Positions 1 through 6,173 of a stretch of 6,173 bases of DNA are shown piece by piece; position 1 is the stretch's first letter; every line of letters starts with the position of its first letter. Made by a program: the position numbers and the translations under genes. This stretch comes from a virus (taxonomy: Duplodnaviria; Heunggongvirae; Uroviricota; Caudoviricetes): IMG/VR virus record IMGVR_UViG_2609459804_000023; one strand, written 5' to 3'. The notes beneath the pieces were generated by a model. It was not told the DNA's origin. It was given only the letters and a program-made list of their open reading frames with translations, and did not search any database.

Positions 1-15
1 TGCCAACTTACTGAT
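1..15. repeat. IS1 left terminal inverted repeat (partial)
   Basis: Positions 1-15 are the reverse complement of the matching part of the right repeat at 738-760 with few mismatches. Confidence 0.8.
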
Positions 16-47
16 TTAGTGTATGATGGTGATTTTAAGGTGCTTGC

Positions 48-323
48 GTGGCTTCCATTTCCATCAGATGTCCTTCCTGCTCCGCTACTGAAGGCGTGGT
101 GCGTAACGGCAAAAGCACTGCCGGACATCAGCGCTATCTCTGCTCTCATTGCCGTAAAACATGGCAACTACAGTTCACTTACACCGCCTCTCAGCCCGGT
201 ACGCACCAGAAAATCATTGATATGGCCATGAATGGCGTCGGATGTCGCGCCAGTGCACGCATTATGGGCGTTGGCCTCAACACGGTTTTACGTCACTTAA
301 AAAACTCAGGCCGCAGTCGGTAA
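48..323 (+). CDS. insA: IS1 InsA (transposition repressor / N-terminal part of transposase), GTG start
   Basis: 91-aa [46 protein letters not shown]... with zinc-finger-like CxxC..CxxC and helix-turn-helix region, matching InsA from memory; stop TAA at 321-323. Confidence 0.92.
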
Positions 324-745
324 CCTCGCGCATACAACCGGGCAGTGATGTGATTGTCTGCGCTGAAATGGACGAACAGTGGGGCTACGTCGGTGCTAAA
401 TCACGTCAGCGCTGGCTGTTTTACGCGTATGACAGGATACGGAGGACTGTTGTGGCGCACGTCTTCGGTGAACGCACTCTGGCCACACTGGAGCGTCTTC
501 TGAGCCTGCTGTCGGCCTTTGAGGTCGTGGTATGGATGACGGATGGCTGGCCGCTGTATGAATCACGCCTGAAGGGAAAGCTGCACGTTATCAGCAAGCG
601 TTACACTCAGCGCATTGAGCGACATAATCTGAATCTGAGACAACATCTGGCAAGGCTGGGACGGAAGTCACTGTCGTTCTCAAAATCGGTGGAGCTGCAT
701 GACAAGGTCATCGGGCATTATCTGAACATAAAACACTATCAGTAA
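242..745 (+). CDS. insB: IS1 InsB reading frame (catalytic part of the transposase, expressed as InsAB' fusion by -1 frameshift from insA)
   Basis: 167-codon open frame in the -1 frame relative to insA, overlapping its 3' end; C-terminal sequence ...[54 protein letters not shown]... is typical of InsB. Confidence 0.9.
297..305 (+). promoter_or_regulatory. Programmed -1 ribosomal frameshift motif TTAAAAAAC (A6C) of IS1
   Basis: Exact ttaaaaaac heptamer context inside the insA/insB overlap, upstream of the insA stop. Confidence 0.8.
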
Positions 746-760
746 GTTGGAGTCATTACC
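738..760. repeat. IS1 right terminal inverted repeat
   Basis: atcagtaagttggagtcattacc; reverse complement resembles the IS1 left end. Confidence 0.85.
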
Positions 761-907
761 ATCGCCAGGATGATTTCTCAGATAACAGGAGTTGATATTC
801 AGTATTGCCGGAGGCGGGTCGTGTGGTGCGAGAGGGTCCTTGATTCAGAAATGTTTTATGCAATGAAGCGAGAATTGGAGAAAGAACTTCTAGTGATTAC
901 TGGATGA
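761..907 (+). pseudogene. Open frame running from the IS1 boundary to a TGA at 905-907; possible 3' remnant of the late antiterminator Q gene interrupted by IS1
   Basis: Only one of the three plus frames is open across 761-904 (IARMISQITGVDIQYCRRRVVWCERVLDSEMFYAMKRELEKELLVITG*); the in-frame ATG at 770 has no usable Shine-Dalgarno; the stop lies about 25 bp upstream of a PR'-like promoter, which is where Q ends in lambdoid phages. The Q identity is inference by position, not sequence recognition. Confidence 0.3.
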
Positions 908-931
908 TGCAAAATATTTTTTGTAAATGCG

Positions 932-960
932 TTGCTTTCGAGAAATGAAAGTAGTATGTT
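932..960 (+). promoter_or_regulatory. Candidate late promoter PR' (-35 TTGCTT 932-937, 17-bp spacer, -10 TATGTT 955-960), likely including the Q-utilisation region
   Basis: Sigma70-like hexamers with 17-bp spacing located about 110-130 bp upstream of a strong terminator, the arrangement of lambdoid PR'-tR'. Confidence 0.4.
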
Positions 961-966
961 TTGTGT

Positions 967-1095
967 ATGCTCGGAGCAAAAGCGCACTGAGAAGCGAAAG
1001 AGAAATCCTGATTTACCTCGGTCGTCGATAATATTTAGGATCGGCATACTGGCTAGATTAGGTAAAGGCCTCGGCAGAAATGTCGGGGCTTTTTG
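967..1095 (+). ncRNA. Short PR'-to-tR' transcript (lambda 6S-RNA-like terminated late leader; approximate 5' end)
   Basis: Region between the candidate PR' and the tR' hairpin with no convincing ORF; by analogy with lambda 6S RNA and the terminated PR' transcripts of Stx phages. Confidence 0.35.
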
Positions 1096-1098
1096 TTT
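1068..1098 (+). terminator. Intrinsic terminator tR' (9-bp stem, GAAA tetraloop, T-run)
   Basis: gcctcggca-gaaa-tgtcggggc followed by tttttgttt; the downstream sequence gcacaacaggtaagagcattga resembles, from memory, the sequence immediately after lambda tR'. Confidence 0.75.
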
Positions 1099-1171
1099 GC
1101 ACAACAGGTAAGAGCATTGAACCCGCAGACCTCGTGGAATTGGTGAAAGGTGTGCGCAGTGCTCTTATCGT

Positions 1172-1298
1172 TGTGGTGAAGCTCAATGGCGAGCTAGCAG
1201 ACAGGCGACTGTGAAAATACTAGTCATGTAGCGGATCGCCGCGCGTATTGTAATCGGCAGCGCACCGATGGGAGCTGGTTCGATTCCGGCCGCCACAA
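1172..1298 (+). pseudogene. tRNA-like relic: acceptor 5' strand plus D-arm (1172-1194) and T-arm plus acceptor 3' strand (1274-1297) separated by too much sequence for a functional tRNA
   Basis: tgtggtg (1172-1178) pairs perfectly with cgccaca (1291-1297); D-arm gctc-aatggc-gagc; canonical T-arm gctgg-ttcgatt-ccggc; total span about 125 nt with no canonical anticodon loop and no encoded CCA. Confidence 0.35.
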
Positions 1299-1414
1299 TC
1301 CAAACTGAGCCGTAGCCTCTGGGTGTCCTGAATTCATCAGTGATAGTTACGCTGCGGCCTTCTACATACGATTTTTGTGAAAAGCGGGTGGCAAGAGGCT
1401 GCGAAATTTTTAAA

Positions 1415-1636
1415 TACCTCACAATTCCACAGCTTGATGATTGTCTGGCTGCCGGAGAATTTGTTAAAAATTACATCGCGTGGTGAATCCCCCTCAGCGG
1501 CGGGGCATCTGGCAAAGTGTATGATCCAGCGAACATGCAAATTCAGTAGCCAGGCTGAATTTACCGGGAGGCACCTGGCACCATGCGACAGACAGAAATT
1601 AGGCTATACTTCAGCCCCTCTCCGGAGGGGCTTTTC
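1415..1636 (+). repeat. Module A of a tandem triplicated element (candidate small-RNA or attenuator unit) ending in an intrinsic terminator
   Basis: Shares ordered conserved blocks with 1881-2120: tcacaattc, attgtctggc, tttgttaaaaa, ggtgaatccccct, a conserved-stem hairpin (1489-1506), accgggaggcacc.tgcaccatgc, and the terminator agcccctc-tccg-gaggggct-ttt. Indels shift the reading frame between copies. Confidence 0.6.
1613..1636 (+). terminator. Intrinsic terminator of module A (8-bp GC-rich stem, UCCG loop, T-run)
   Basis: agcccctc tccg gaggggct tttc. Confidence 0.8.
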
Positions 1637-1677
1637 TGTGCAGGATGTGTCACAGTTTCCTGAATTCTGAGTACTGT

Positions 1678-1849
1678 CCTGTTACTCAGGGTGCTATATT
1701 TTCTGACGTGATGAAAGTCTGCCGGAAGGCGGAACGTATCGGAAATGACCCAGTAGAGAAAACGTTGACTCAGATACCGATGCTGAGTTACCGGGAAACC
1801 GGCATCACATGACCGCTATCCTTCCAGGCTCGCTCCGGCGGGCCTTTTT
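1678..1849 (+). repeat. Module B, a shortened and more diverged copy of the same element
   Basis: Retains gttactca, gatga..gtctg..ccgga, gctgagttaccgggaaaccggcatcacatg and a terminator with the same UCCG loop. Confidence 0.5.
1827..1849 (+). terminator. Intrinsic terminator of module B
   Basis: ggctcgc tccg gcgggcc ttttt (7-bp stem with one G-U pair). Confidence 0.75.
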
Positions 1850-1880
1850 ACTGCAGAAAACAGTTTTCCCGTAAAATGCC

Positions 1881-2120
1881 ACGTTACTCACAATTCAGGC
1901 TGGCGATTATTGTCTGGCCAGCGGGAAGTTTGTTAAAAAAATATGGCATGGTGAATCCCCCTGTGCGGAGGGGCATATCAGCGACAGGTGTTTGGTCACA
2001 CCCCTTATCCTTTCTGGTGCGGGTTCAGGTGCTGATACTGAACTCACCGGGAGGCACCCTGCACCATGCATGAACGGTACATAGCGCTACTCTCCAGCCC
2101 CTCTCCGGAGGGGCTTTCTT
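1881..2120 (+). repeat. Module C of the tandem triplicated element, ending in an intrinsic terminator
   Basis: Same ordered conserved blocks as module A, a hairpin at 1957-1974 with conserved stem and different loop, and an identical terminator stem-loop at 2096-2115; preceded by a -10-like TAAAAT at 1872-1877. Confidence 0.6.
2096..2120 (+). terminator. Intrinsic terminator of module C
   Basis: agcccctc tccg gaggggct ttcttgtt. Confidence 0.7.
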
Positions 2121-2127
2121 GTTGGAT

Positions 2128-2157
2128 AAAAAAAAGCCCGCGCCGGGAAGCGCGGGT
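2128..2157 (-). terminator. Minus-strand intrinsic terminator (hairpin preceded on the plus strand by A8), convergent with the module C terminator
   Basis: aaaaaaaa gcccgcgc cgggaa gcgcgggt: read on the minus strand this is an 8-bp GC stem followed by U8. Confidence 0.5.
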
Positions 2158-2357
2158 GGCAAGGAATAAACAACAAAACGTGAAGTGATCAATTTTCAGC
2201 TGGCGAATAATACCCGACAGTAATCACTCTGCGCAACTGTATGGTCTTTTTCGTATTGCGGGCTGTAGTCATCCTCCTGTTTCTGAACCCTTGTCCATGA
2301 CTGACGTCAGCCCGCACCTTATCTTGATTGCATACACTATCCCTGCCGGGAGGAATA

Positions 2358-4331
2358 ATGGCATTTAAACACTATGACGTGGTCAGGGCATCATCGCCGT
2401 CAGACCTCGCAGGAAAACTGACGCAAAAACTGAAGGAAGGCTGGCAACCCTATGGTAGTCCGATTATCTCAAACGCGGGTTATGGTGCTGAATTTATCCA
2501 GGCTATAGTCGCTGAAGGGGATATGACCTCTCCGGTAGTTTCACCGGGGGGAGATGGTACCCGGACTGTTGTTGTTGAACCAGAATATTACTTTGTCATT
2601 GCGCTGGCCGGACAGTCAAACGGCATGGCGTATGGTGAAGGTCTGCCGCTGCCGGAGACATATGACCGTCCGGACCCGCGTATTAAACAGCTGGCGCGTC
2701 GCAGTACGGTGACACCGGGTGGTGCGGCCTGTGCATATAACGACATCATTCCGGCGGACCACTGCCTGCATGATGTGCAGGATTTGAGCCGTTTTTCTCA
2801 TCCGAAAGCCAGCGCAGAGCAGTATGGGTGTGTCGGACAGGGATTGCATATTGCCAAAAAGCTGTTGCCCTTTATGCCGGAAAATGCGGGTATTTTGTTA
2901 GTGCCGTGCTGTCGTGGTGGCTCTGCGTTTACAGCCGGTGCTGACGGAACGTTCAGTGAAAGTTCAGGAGCGTCGGATAAATCTGAACGATGGGGCGTTG
3001 ATAAGCCGTTGTATAAAGACCTGCTGACACGCACTCAGGCCGCGCTGAAGGCAAACCCCAAAAACATACTGCTTTGTGTTGTCTGGATGCAGGGCGAGTT
3101 TGATTTAAAACAGGGAGCGTACGCCAGTCAGCCCGCCATGTTTGATGCCATGGTGGAAAAATACCGTTCTGACCTGGCGGGAGTATCCGGTCAGTGCGCT
3201 GGTGCTTCTCCTTCTCTGGTGCCCTGGATTTGTGGTGACACGACGTACTACTGGAAGGAGACGTATTCAGCGCAATACGATGCCGTCTATGGCGCATACA
3301 AAACCAAAGCCGGTAAAAATATCTTCTTTGTGCCGTTTATGATGGATGACAATGGTCAGAAAGTCGGGACCAATGAACCGTCAGAAGACCCGGATATTCC
3401 GGCTATCGGGTATTATGGTTCCGGTGGACGAACGGATGCGAAGAGCTGGACAACATCCGATCGTAAAACCCACTTTGGTTCATGGGCGCGTCGCGGAATT
3501 ATTTCCGACCGTCTGGCAACAGCCATTCTTCTGCATGTGGGCAGAGTGGCAGATTTTGTTTCCGGGAAAGTGACAAAAGCCGCGGTTTCTTCAGGCGGAG
3601 GCGTATCGCAACCAGCACAGGAGAGTGGCGATACTCAGCCTGAATCCGTTGTCCCGACAAAGATACAGTCAGTGCTGGCTTATGATGCGAATGCGGAAAA
3701 TGCCGATCTGGCTTCGCAGGGCTGGACGCTGACAGATGTCAAAAACACGCTGGTCAGTGACAGTGGTTCAGGTAAAAAAGCCCTTCGTCTTGAAAAACCA
3801 GAAAATGGTCTTGCACAGAAAAAGACCTGGAAAGTATCGCACGCAATTGATGCCGGTAAGGGGAAGGAGCTGTTCGATAACGGCGGTGAAATCACGCTGC
3901 GCTTTAAAATCCCCGATGATGTATCTCTCAATGCTTCTGCAAATCAATATTCTGCGGGTATTTACTGGCGCGGTAGTGGATGGCCGGGAGCGGAATCAGA
4001 GGAGGGTTATATTGCGGCCTTCTATCTGCAGACTGATAAAACAAACATCAATGTGATGTATCATGCAAACACCACATCACAGCGGCTTGGTAGTTATGGT
4101 CCGTTCGATCACGACTGGCACACGCTGACTTTCCGCTTCCCGGGTGGTGGCTCGCTGAACGTCACGCCGGTGCTTGATAATGCAGCAGGAAAACCGTTTA
4201 CGCTGACCAGATGGACGAATGCAGCCTTTGAGGCCAACGCGCTGGCAATTACGGATATTACCGGAAATGCGGCAACTTACCCTGTGCTGATTGAAAGTCT
4301 TACTGTTGGTGTGAATGCCGTAGCAGCATAA
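2358..4331 (+). CDS. nanS: Prophage-encoded sialate O-acetylesterase of the NanS-p type (N-terminal DUF1737-like region, SGNH/SASA esterase core with GQSN motif, about 250-aa C-terminal domain)
   Basis: 657-aa ORF; GGGAGG at 2348-2353 four nt before ATG 2358; N-terminus MAFKHYDVVRASSPSDLAGKLTQKLKEGWQPYGSPIIS and motif FVIALAGQSNGMAYGEG are characteristic of the family; location between the late regulatory region and the holin matches nanS-p in EHEC lambdoid prophages. The ORF-track start at 2328 is probably an upstream in-frame ATG without a ribosome-binding site. Confidence 0.88.
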   Translation: MAFKHYDVVRASSPSDLAGKLTQKLKEGWQPYGSPIISNAGYGAEFIQAIVAEGDMTSPVVSPGGDGTRTVVVEPEYYFVIALAGQSNGMAYGEGLPLPETYDRPDPRIKQLARRSTVTPGGAACAYNDIIPADHCLHDVQDLSRFSHPKASAEQYGCVGQGLHIAKKLLPFMPENAGILLVPCCRGGSAFTAGADGTFSESSGASDKSERWGVDKPLYKDLLTRTQAALKANPKNILLCVVWMQGEFDLKQGAYASQPAMFDAMVEKYRSDLAGVSGQCAGASPSLVPWICGDTTYYWKETYSAQYDAVYGAYKTKAGKNIFFVPFMMDDNGQKVGTNEPSEDPDIPAIGYYGSGGRTDAKSWTTSDRKTHFGSWARRGIISDRLATAILLHVGRVADFVSGKVTKAAVSSGGGVSQPAQESGDTQPESVVPTKIQSVLAYDANAENADLASQGWTLTDVKNTLVSDSGSGKKALRLEKPENGLAQKKTWKVSHAIDAGKGKELFDNGGEITLRFKIPDDVSLNASANQYSAGIYWRGSGWPGAESEEGYIAAFYLQTDKTNINVMYHANTTSQRLGSYGPFDHDWHTLTFRFPGGGSLNVTPVLDNAAGKPFTLTRWTNAAFEANALAITDITGNAATYPVLIESLTVGVNAVAA

Positions 4332-4337
4332 CAGACG

Positions 4338-4373
4338 AAAAAAACCGCCAGCAACAGGAATGGAGACTGGCGG
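4338..4373 (-). terminator. Hairpin with flanking A7 just after the nanS stop; possible weak or antisense-direction terminator
   Basis: aaaaaaa ccgccag (15-nt loop) ctggcgg; U-tract only on the minus strand; the loop is long, so weak. Confidence 0.25.
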
Positions 4374-4471
4374 AGGTAATCCCAATGGAGAATCTAACGA
4401 AAGGATGCTTTCGACATCAATCATTTCTAAATGAAAACAGTTCTCATTGTCAACAGTAACGGTAATAAACC

Positions 4472-4666
4472 ATGACATTCATCAACCAGTTAATGCTGTA
4501 CTTCTGTACGGTGGTCTGTGTGTTGTATCTGCTTTCGGGTGGATACAGGGCAGTACGCGACTTCTGGCGCAGACAGATTGACAAAAGGGCCGCTGAGAAA
4601 ATCAGCGCCACTCAGTCAGCCGGAGCAAAAACAGAAGCCCCACTCATTCCGGAACAACCTTCTTAA
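4472..4666 (+). CDS. Hypothetical small membrane protein (64 aa, N-terminal transmembrane segment, basic C-terminal tail)
   Basis: ORF MTFINQLMLYFCTVVCVLYLLSGGYRAVRDFWRRQIDKR...; hydrophobic N-terminus; weak Shine-Dalgarno; sits 25 bp upstream of the next ORF. Confidence 0.35.
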   Translation: MTFINQLMLYFCTVVCVLYLLSGGYRAVRDFWRRQIDKRAAEKISATQSAGAKTEAPLIPEQPS

Positions 4667-4691
4667 TAACCCCTTTCAACGAGAAAATCTC

Positions 4692-4982
4692 ATGACAGAT
4701 ATAAAACAACTGGTCACTGCTGAGGCAGTGAAGGAAGTCATTCGCTCTGAAGAAGTCAGAAGCGTCCTGAAACAAAAACTCCGCCAGAATCTGGAAGAGC
4801 GTCTTGATGCAGAAGTGGATTCAATTCTGGATGAATTGCTTGGTGCACAGCCGGAACCATCCCCGGAACTGCTTCCGGAACCACAGGCGGAAGATGTCAC
4901 CACGGAAAATGGTGATATTCAGCCGGAGTCACCGGTGACGGATATGACAGACACACAACCCGAACCGGGCACAATGCTGTAA
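4692..4982 (+). CDS. Hypothetical acidic protein (96 aa; N-terminal helical region, Pro/Glu-rich low-complexity C-terminus)
   Basis: In-frame ATG at 4692 (MTDIKQLVTAEAVKEVIRSEEVRSVLKQKLRQNLEERLDAEVDSILDELLGAQPEPSPELLPEPQAEDV...); the longer ORF-track version from 4518 overlaps the preceding ORF in another frame and is less likely. Confidence 0.45.
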   Translation: MTDIKQLVTAEAVKEVIRSEEVRSVLKQKLRQNLEERLDAEVDSILDELLGAQPEPSPELLPEPQAEDVTTENGDIQPESPVTDMTDTQPEPGTML

Positions 4983-4993
4983 CGGCGGGGCAG

Positions 4994-5024
4994 GGCCATC
5001 AGTAAAACACTGATGGCCTTTTTT
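4994..5024 (+). terminator. Strong intrinsic terminator immediately upstream of the holin gene
   Basis: ggccatcag-taaaaca-ctgatggcc (perfect 9-bp stem) followed by tttttt. Confidence 0.8.
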
Positions 5025-5058
5025 ATTTCCGGTAGCACAGGTCTGTCGGGGCGGGGAT

Positions 5059-5274
5059 ATGTATCAGATGGAAAAAATATCAACGGGCATAGCCTATGGT
5101 ACTTCTGCGGGCAGTGCGGGTTACTGGTTTCTACAGTGGTTGGATCAGGTTACTCCGTCACAGTGGGCTGCTATCGGGGTTTTGGGGAGCCTGTGTCTGG
5201 GGTTCCTGACATACCTGACGAATCTGTATTTCAAAATTAAAGAGGACCGTCGCAAGGCTGCCCGGGGAGAGTGA
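5059..5274 (+). CDS. S: Class II holin of the phage 21 S21 pinholin type with dual-start motif (71-aa antiholin from ATG 5059, 68-aa holin from ATG 5068)
   Basis: [71 protein letters not shown] is near-identical, from memory, to S21; two hydrophobic segments; GGGGA placed optimally for the second ATG. Confidence 0.88.
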
Positions 5275-5278
5275 TTAG

Positions 5279-5812
5279 GTGACTCAGAAACTCCACTATG
5301 GTTTATCGGTAGCCGTTCTGGCGCTGATTGCGGCAGGTGCTTCTGCGCCTGAAATCATCGACCAGTTTCTTGACGAAAAAGAAGGTAACCACACCACGGC
5401 ATACCGTGATGGTGCGGGGATCTGGACCATCTGCCGTGGTGCCATCATGGTGGATGGCAAACCTGTCGTCCCGGGCATGAAGTTGTCGAAGGAAAAATGC
5501 GACCAGGTTAACGCCATTGAGCGTGATAAGGCGCTGGCATGGGTGGAGAAAAACATCAGAGTGCCACTGACCGAACCCCAGAAAGCGGGGATCGCGTCAT
5601 TCTGTCCGTACAACATCGGGCCTTCGAAATGCTTCACCTCAACGTTTTACCGGAAACTGAACGCCGGAGACCGGAAAGGTGCATGTGCTGAAATCCGCCG
5701 ATGGATATATGACGGCGGCAGGGACTGTCGGAATCGCTCAAATAACTGTTACGGGCAGGTATCGCGGCGTGACCAGGAGAGCGCGCTGGCGTGCTGGGGA
5801 ATTGACAGATAA
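5279..5812 (+). CDS. R: SAR (signal-arrest-release) endolysin, T4-lysozyme-like glycoside hydrolase family 24; GTG start
   Basis: N-terminal SAR-like segment GLSVAVLALIAAGASAP; catalytic E-x8-D-x5-T triad in EGNHTTAYRDGAGIWT; positioned 4 nt after the pinholin stop, the usual pinholin plus SAR-endolysin pairing. Confidence 0.92.
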   Translation: MTQKLHYGLSVAVLALIAAGASAPEIIDQFLDEKEGNHTTAYRDGAGIWTICRGAIMVDGKPVVPGMKLSKEKCDQVNAIERDKALAWVEKNIRVPLTEPQKAGIASFCPYNIGPSKCFTSTFYRKLNAGDRKGACAEIRRWIYDGGRDCRNRSNNCYGQVSRRDQESALACWGIDR

Positions 5813-5902
5813 GCAGAATATTTTGCTGAAAAATGCGGTTTGCTCACACGGACGGATAACACGAAATCCTGCGAACTGACAAAAACTAAGTGAATAAAAG
5901 TA

Positions 5903-5937
5903 AAAACCCCGTTTGTTGGCTGCAAGCGGGGTTTTGT
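5903..5937. terminator. Bidirectional intrinsic terminator downstream of the endolysin gene
   Basis: aaaaccccg...cggggtttt hairpin with inner ttg/caa extension, A-rich upstream and T-rich downstream, so U-tracts exist in both orientations. Confidence 0.7.
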
Positions 5938-5968
5938 GTTTCTGACCTTGGATAAGGCAAGGGAGAAC

Positions 5969-6151
5969 ATGGAAAAGTATAAACGAATTCTGTTGAGGTT
6001 GACTATGAAAAACGGCCTTGAACTGAAAGCGCCTGTAACTGATGACATCAGCAGAGCACTGGCTTTTGCCATTAAGTGGGTGGCGGTCGGTGTTGCTGTG
6101 TCCCCGATGCTGTATGGGCTGGCAAAACTGGTCATTGCGTTGAAATCGTGA
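5969..6151 (+). CDS. Hypothetical small membrane protein (60 aa from ATG 5969; C-terminal transmembrane segment)
   Basis: MEKYKRILLRLTMKNGLELKAPVTDDISRALAFAIKWVAVGVAVSPMLYGLAKLVIALKS; aagggaga ribosome-binding site just upstream; the ORF-track GTG start at 5936 lies inside the terminator hairpin and is unlikely. Confidence 0.35.
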   Translation: MEKYKRILLRLTMKNGLELKAPVTDDISRALAFAIKWVAVGVAVSPMLYGLAKLVIALKS

Positions 6152-6165
6152 AGGGAGGATTAAGC

Positions 6166-6173
6166 ATGTCAGA
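6166..6173 (+). CDS. 5' end of the next gene (only ATG TCA GA in window); by position possibly the i-spanin Rz
   Basis: Strong Shine-Dalgarno agggagg at 6152-6158 followed 7 nt later by ATG at 6166; the gene continues beyond the window. Confidence 0.25.

Follow-up and report, generated by a model that had tools for sequence, protein, structure and literature searches.

An IS1 element forms the left end of a stretch of Caudoviricetes DNA of 6,173 nucleotides (IMG/VR record IMGVR_UViG_2609459804_000023, referred to here in its entirety as the window), and a lysis cassette lies toward the other end. The question raised by this locus is whether IS1 has destroyed the late antiterminator gene Q of a lambdoid prophage and what would follow from this for the late genes. 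In silico analysis showed that window positions 1-760 are 100% identical, over all 760 nt, to IS1 copies present in many E. coli genomes. A complete and identical IS1 copy with its flanks (locus L026) opens with GGTAATGC directly before the first window base and, therefore, the window copy of IS1 is short by 8 nt only; its left inverted repeat enters the window from the ninth base, the first 8 nt being known from L026. Counted by eye, 20 of the 23 bases in the reverse complement of 738-760 are the same as in GGTAATGCTGCCAACTTACTGAT, the left end of IS1. Together, the near-identity, the presence of insA, insB' and the A6C motif, and both imperfect inverted repeats of about 23 bp establish that window 1-760 belongs to IS1, which has the same orientation as the gene that it interrupts. 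The coordinates of all features are collected in Table 1.

Table 1. Location of IS1, the interrupted gene, the putative control elements and the late genes within the window.
Feature	Coordinates	Strand	Remarks
IS1	1..760	+	Complete except that 8 nt at its start, GGTAATGC, fall outside the window
insA	48-323	+	ORF within IS1
insB' frame	242-745	+	ORF within IS1; stop at 743-745
A6C programmed frameshift motif	299-305	+	Within IS1
IS1 right terminal inverted repeat	738..760	+	IS1/target boundary between 760 and 761
3' remnant of Q-like late-antiterminator gene	761..907	+	Codons 157-204 of 204 plus stop
ATCGCCAGG	761..769	+	Candidate; 9-bp target-site duplication expected if IS1 inserted simply
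Conserved PR'-like block	932..999	+	Near-invariant across phages with diverged flanks; includes conserved initial transcribed region
-35-like TTGCTT	932-937	+	17-nt spacer to TATGTT
-10 hexamer TATGTT	955-960	+	PR'-like promoter
-10-like TATGCT	966-971	+	Possible sigma-dependent pause element
tR'-like intrinsic terminator	1064..1100	+	13-bp hairpin, then U-run
Terminator stack, PR' to late genes	1448..2126	+	STnc100 repeats
Late region that would depend on read-through	2358..5812	+	ORFs; Pfam families of identical proteins in related loci; RefSeq
nanS-p-type SASA esterase	2358-4331	+	
DUF1378 (64 aa) and DUF826-type ORF	4472-4982	+	Overlapping, in different frames, just upstream of holin
Class II holin	5059-5274	+	
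Lysozyme	5279-5812	+	

The gene on the right of IS1 was identified by comparison with uninterrupted relatives. A BLAST search of 700-1300 against 5,426 complete E. coli genomes returned 18 genomes matching 761-1300 at 99.6-99.8% and no record spanning the IS1/Q junction, and each of the 18 loci of this gene type that were fetched aligns with the window from exactly 761 onward. In strain G1/2 (locus L001) the uninterrupted gene is a 615-nt ORF of 204 codons at 5533-6147, and window position 761 corresponds to L001 6001, which is position 469 of this ORF. P0241, the 204-aa protein that the intact gene of locus L015 encodes, ends in the same sequence as the product of 761-907. The first-pass annotation, made from the window alone, had proposed that IS1 lies in the 3' part of Q, and the comparison agrees with this, since 761-904 corresponds to the last 48 codons, 157-204, of a gene that occupies the Q position, has 204 codons and is broken at the end of IS1. 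Its further statement that IS1 sits exactly at the Q/PR' junction needs correction, as the element lies within the coding sequence, 144 nt before the stop codon and 171 nt before the -35-like hexamer.

We then considered what the interrupted gene encodes. The gene is intact in 18 complete E. coli genomes, where RefSeq labels it as 'hypothetical protein', and the protein is 204 aa long in most of the homologs listed. The intact protein corresponds over its full length to PHROG 753 'anti-termination protein Q-like' (E=3.3e-68; residues 12-200 against profile positions 1-186 of 189), an assignment that is a computational annotation and to which the window itself contributes just the last 48 residues; this 48-aa fragment matches profile positions 142-185 of 189 with E=5.9e-10. 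The first-pass annotation had suggested a comparison with Q antiterminators of the lambda, 21 and 82 types; the intact protein was not recognized in the corresponding families PF03589, PF06530 and PF06323, and a search of Pfam and NCBIfam with the 204-aa protein gave no hit. The genetic context supports the PHROG assignment. In uninterrupted relatives the gene order is ninB-ninE-rusA-ninH-(80 aa)-204 aa, followed by a non-coding control region, nanS-p, holin, lysozyme and Rz. Escherichia phage PhiR5_2, a viable phage propagated on MG1655, carries a 100% identical protein in the same slot, and distant homologs occupy this slot in the P22-like Salmonella phage UPF_BP1 (after NinH/NinZ), in ST64B (sb49) and in Yersinia phages. 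Thus, the gene is in the Q position, at the end of the nin/delayed-early region and directly upstream of the late/lysis operon.

The same slot can hold a different regulator. Four sister prophages (L009, L014, L017 and L020) have a PF06530 Q in this place, and they share the nanS-p and lysis module with the window while differing in the downstream control region from window 908-2037; homology to the window returns only at positions of at least 2038, resuming at 2038 in the sister prophages and at 4424 in L014. Therefore, the regulator and the downstream control region have been swapped together as a unit, which is what would be expected of a Q gene and the site on which it acts. The gene most likely switches on the late (lysis) genes, with antitermination as its predicted mode of action; our literature search found no experimental work on this family of 204-aa proteins. 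In L014, L017 and L020 the control region contains, in addition, an inserted hok-like gene and a type I methylase/specificity pair.

Three families of Q antiterminators (Q21/933W, Q-lambda and Q82) are recognized, which lack sequence similarity to one another (10.1101/651190). In order to place the 204-aa protein among them, we used an alignment of 43 sequences of its family (A1) and an AlphaFold2 model of the protein (mean pLDDT 76.3, pTM 0.68, with low confidence at 50-58, 67-69 and 106-117). When the model was compared with the PDB using Foldseek, the top eight matches were all Q21 chains, each with a probability of 1.0 and with TM scores (normalized to the target) of 0.60-0.67. The predicted structure thus shows the Q21 fold, with its sigma-R4-related body and helix-turn-helix-type DNA-binding motif. 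Sequence comparison places the protein outside PF06530: the 204-aa protein itself gave no hit to this family, and five of the 43 A1 homologs gave weak PF06530 hits (best E=0.032). In an hmmsearch of the family profile against PDB sequences, Q21 appeared at a non-significant E=1.2, in an alignment with a convincing T..Q..W....L..WG correspondence to Q21 residues 8-27. Alignment with hhalign against the PF06530 alignment reached a probability of 0.14%, and here the C-terminal stretch faces the LARK..G.SD..IGKRL..AE motif of PF06530 proteins. For Q-lambda (PF03589) and Q82 (PF06323) there was no Pfam hit at E<=1, and no Q-lambda structure was among the PDB fold matches.

The family is small: among 1.84 billion representatives, an HMM search recovered just 40 clusters (50% identity) at E<=0.001. 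The distant members P0258, P0270 and P0271 score above the Pfam cut-off for DUF1133 (PF06576), and P0271 passes that for PF06530 as well (36.2 bits against a cut-off of 26), while the E. coli 204-aa protein itself falls below the DUF1133 cut-off. DUF1133 proteins have been named Q antiterminators in a survey of Stx phages on HHpred evidence (PMC8136144). Taking these results together, we conclude that the gene product is probably a divergent and comparatively long member of the Q21 superfamily, outside PF06530 by sequence, and a predicted antiterminator; the 204-aa family would be a distant and longer relative of the phage 21 and 933W Q antiterminators, as supported by the modeled structure. 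Two further observations were made in these searches. In P0270 (379 aa) and P0271 (366 aa) the Q-like/DUF1133/PF06530 domain follows an N-terminal HNH endonuclease domain, an arrangement that is unusual for Q. The C-terminal domain of the eukaryotic ER protein ERp29 (5v8z, 2qc7) scored better by sequence (E=9e-4) than Q21 and was rejected as a spurious relative; the match spans A1 profile positions 28-101 (approximately residues 27-100) and is probably a chance likeness of helical segments.

The region between the interrupted gene and nanS-p was then analyzed for the control elements on which a Q protein would act. The first-pass annotation had described a PR'-like promoter shortly after the stop codon. 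This site was not listed by a consensus promoter scan and matches about 7 of 12 consensus positions, so that support for it rests on conservation: the block 932-999 is kept in the E. coli window, in Cronobacter ENT47670 and in Salmonella UPF_BP1 and 29485 while the flanks diverge. A putative tR' follows approximately 100-130 nt downstream of the putative start site; its hairpin has a dG of -18.9 kcal/mol (z = -3.96), and none of 200 shuffled sequences folded as well. Further downstream, two elements of the STnc100 sRNA family (Rfam RF02076) were detected at 1448-1641 and 1917-2126 with 139.9 and 129.9 bits, respectively, against a gathering score of 47, together with a weaker copy at 1677-1852, and all three copies end in a GC-rich hairpin and a T-run. 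In total, 11 terminator-like sites were found in 700-2400, where 1.8 were expected. Since the PR'-like promoter is followed by these terminators, expression of nanS-p and the lysis genes from it would need antitermination. In the scheme envisaged for an intact phage, RNA polymerase that pauses shortly after the constitutive PR'-like promoter (932-971) would be joined by Q, and the Q-loaded polymerase would pass the tR'-like terminator and the STnc100 stack to reach nanS-p, holin, endolysin, Rz and the structural genes. Gene callers differ between loci as to whether DUF1378 or the DUF826-type ORF upstream of the holin is to be called.

The low consensus score of the promoter would also fit an activator-dependent promoter, and the 204-aa protein might accordingly be another kind of late regulator with a sigma-region-4-like fold, for example an activator of the downstream promoter. 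This would be in line with the lack of a direct Pfam or NCBIfam hit and with the fact that a sigma-R4-like fold is common to many DNA-binding regulators. We consider such a role improbable, and under it IS1 would still disable late expression, though through another mechanism. We retain the reading of the gene as a predicted Q21-superfamily antiterminator. With regard to other elements in the control region, ARAGORN found no tRNA genes downstream of Q of the kind that Stx phages carry there. The segment 1172-1298 (+), located where these phages have their tRNA genes, is tRNA-like, with good acceptor, D and T arms and a 74-nt insert replacing the anticodon arm, and it scores 26.5 bits on the Rfam tRNA model, just below the cut-off of 29 for that family; it may be a tRNA that is disrupted or carries an intron, or else a decoy.

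What remains of the gene in the window was examined for a possible product. The reading frame is open from 746, past the insB stop, to the stop codon at 905-907, and the first-pass annotation had noted that it has no start context of its own. This is accurate: the sole start codon in the open frame is the ATG at 770, where AGG directly abuts the ATG and a spaced Shine-Dalgarno sequence is lacking. With this ATG and a frame that is open from inside IS1, the resulting 45-codon ORF (770-907) could be taken as a functional small gene or as a source of a C-terminal Q fragment through read-out from IS1. Both are very improbable, given the missing ribosome-binding site, the result of an exact look-up in the protein collection, in which the 45-aa product has no called-gene record, and the simple identity of the peptide with residues 160-204 of the 204-aa protein. 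On the model these residues cover a helix and a half within a larger domain, the last two helices comprising residues 154-165 and 169-203. This is where the most conserved C-terminal residues are located, namely I157, A158, T165, G166, D168, Q170, R173, R175, W178 and C179. Q21 recognizes the Q binding element with the second helix of its HT[loop]H motif and touches RNA polymerase through its C-terminal residues. IS1 after codon 159 of 204 splits the predicted sigma-region-4-like helix-turn-helix, and the recognition helix and the whole C-terminus (160-204) would be cut off from the N-terminal part, which carries the predicted nozzle-equivalent segment at about residues 49-71. With the helix-turn-helix split and the 45-codon ORF devoid of a ribosome-binding site, no functional Q is therefore to be expected from this locus. 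We reasonably infer that the truncated gene is a null allele; transcripts from PR' should then end at the terminators, with loss of late transcription.

The left side of the insertion is beyond the window, and its content was predicted from the intact gene. The sequence ATCGCCAGG, representing the first 9 target bases, occurs once in the intact gene (L001 6001-6009). If IS1 inserted simply, the sequence left of the element would read ...GCACGCAAGATATCGCCAGG immediately followed by GGTAATGCTGCC..., and with a 9-bp duplication it would be ...GCACGCAAGATATCGCCAGG followed by GGTAATGCTGCCAAC..., with Q codons 1-159 in frame; the N-terminal 159 residues would then end in eight IS1-encoded residues, GNAANLLI. 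We infer that the 5' part of the Q-like gene is located on this side of the element. A 46-nt sequence of the IS1/Q junction had no match in genome_contigs, viral_contigs or metagenome_contigs, and an exact look-up of four fusion proteins predicted to join Q(1-159) to IS1, based on duplications of 8, 9 and 10 bp and on two variants of the IS1 end, found no protein record. Look-ups of the nanS-p and lysozyme proteins led to uninterrupted prophages only, and none of the partial members of the protein cluster (P0244-P0251) breaks at residue 159.

IS1 promotes adjacent deletions. The element might thus mark a rearrangement in which the 5' three-quarters of the gene was removed or displaced, through IS1-mediated loss of adjacent DNA or through inversion or recombination involving two IS1 copies, in which case neither the 9-bp duplication nor the 5' part of Q would be found left of IS1. 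The missing record of any fusion product would fit this, as would the identical IS1 copies elsewhere in related genomes, which could recombine, and the large deletion that this lineage already has, ending 46 bp upstream of the Q-like gene. The absent protein record is, however, weak evidence, with the source assembly itself apparently absent from the collections searched, and simple insertion is the commonest IS1 outcome. On balance, a rearrangement is unlikely, and the functional conclusion is unchanged by it, since the gene would be destroyed by insertion or rearrangement alike. We therefore continue with simple insertion, in which a copy of IS1 entered the late-regulator gene of a lambdoid prophage behind codon 159 (of 204), in the orientation of the gene.

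Given the deletion just mentioned, the state of the prophage before the arrival of IS1 was considered. The C-terminal allele of the window (...LLVITG) is that of protein P0241, and L015 is the closest locus, with a single difference from window 761-6173 in 5413 bases, at position 4795. In all ten of the P0241 contexts shown, a truncated N gene on the opposite strand stands directly in front of the Q-like gene. When these contexts were set against the complete G1/2 prophage, a clean deletion of 10.4 kb (L037 9554-19942) became apparent, which takes the 5' end of N, the LexA-type repressor, cro, cII, the replication genes, a toxin-antitoxin pair, an antirepressor and the nin genes. The joint is at 6955-6958 of L015/L027, corresponding to L037 9553/19943 with 4 bp of overlap, and it brings the truncated N gene (minus strand) to a point 46 bp before the start of the Q-like gene; the deletion belongs to these relatives and is not in the window itself. 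Because all ten contexts shown for the Q allele of the window carry the deletion, the prophage was probably defective before IS1 arrived, and it is likely, judging by this allele, that the source prophage shares the deletion. If so, the prophage was already non-inducible and Q was without PR-driven transcription; the IS1 insertion would then probably be a further step of decay and not the event that disabled the prophage. The first-pass annotation had suggested that a lysis defect would follow if IS1 truncated Q; this is probably not the full explanation, since the deletion probably came earlier. Overall, we consider it probable that IS1 lies inside, and disables, a Q-like antiterminator gene of the Q21 superfamily, probably adding to decay after the 10.4-kb deletion.

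As such, the case is one of ordinary IS-mediated prophage decay and opens no new question. It provides a further example of a stepwise course, in which a 10.4-kb deletion of the immunity and replication region would have been followed by an IS in the late regulator, while the lysis and nanS-p genes stay intact in the decayed prophage. For annotation, 761-907 is to be described as a fragment of an IS1-interrupted Q-like antiterminator pseudogene and not as a small hypothetical gene, and the intact RefSeq 'hypothetical protein' can be renamed a Q21-superfamily Q-like protein. A by-product is the small PHROG 753-type family as a structurally supported relative of Q21 with a predicted function. 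One may go further and propose that the 204-aa proteins (PHROG 753-DUF1133) are a long branch of the Q21 superfamily with a binding element of their own in 932-999, and that the IS1 knock-out is more than neutral decay; we hold this combined proposal to be quite unlikely. Were the part concerning a long branch true, it would effectively be a fourth sequence family of Q antiterminators. With respect to selection, the loss of Q could be favored in a remnant that has no repressor, where it would disarm a lysis cassette that is free of immunity control; PR'-proximal and independently promoted cargo such as nanS-p would then be kept.

In comparison with known systems, insertion sequences have been found in other lambdoid prophages, namely IS1203v in stx2 and the IS629 polymorphisms in O157 prophages (PMC8136144). 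These cases are alike in that an IS in a prophage gene adds to decay or silencing of the prophage; they differ in that the element here is IS1 and the target a Q-like gene, with a junction absent from the complete E. coli genomes searched, and our literature search found no paper on IS1 in a Q gene. As for the regulator itself, members of the Q21/Q933W family (PF06530; structures 6P18, 6P19, 6P1A-C, 6JNX and 6JNY) have approximately 125-162 aa, in contrast to the 204 aa of the protein described here, and Q-lambda (PF03589) has no relationship to it in sequence or fold. In the PR' promoter of lambda, a -10-like repeat comes right after the -10 hexamer, and TATGCT has the same placement in the window. 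In outline, the locus would work like the Q-PR'-tR' switch of lambda, in which the regulator gene is directly upstream of a constitutive promoter and a short transcript runs to the terminator unless Q acts.
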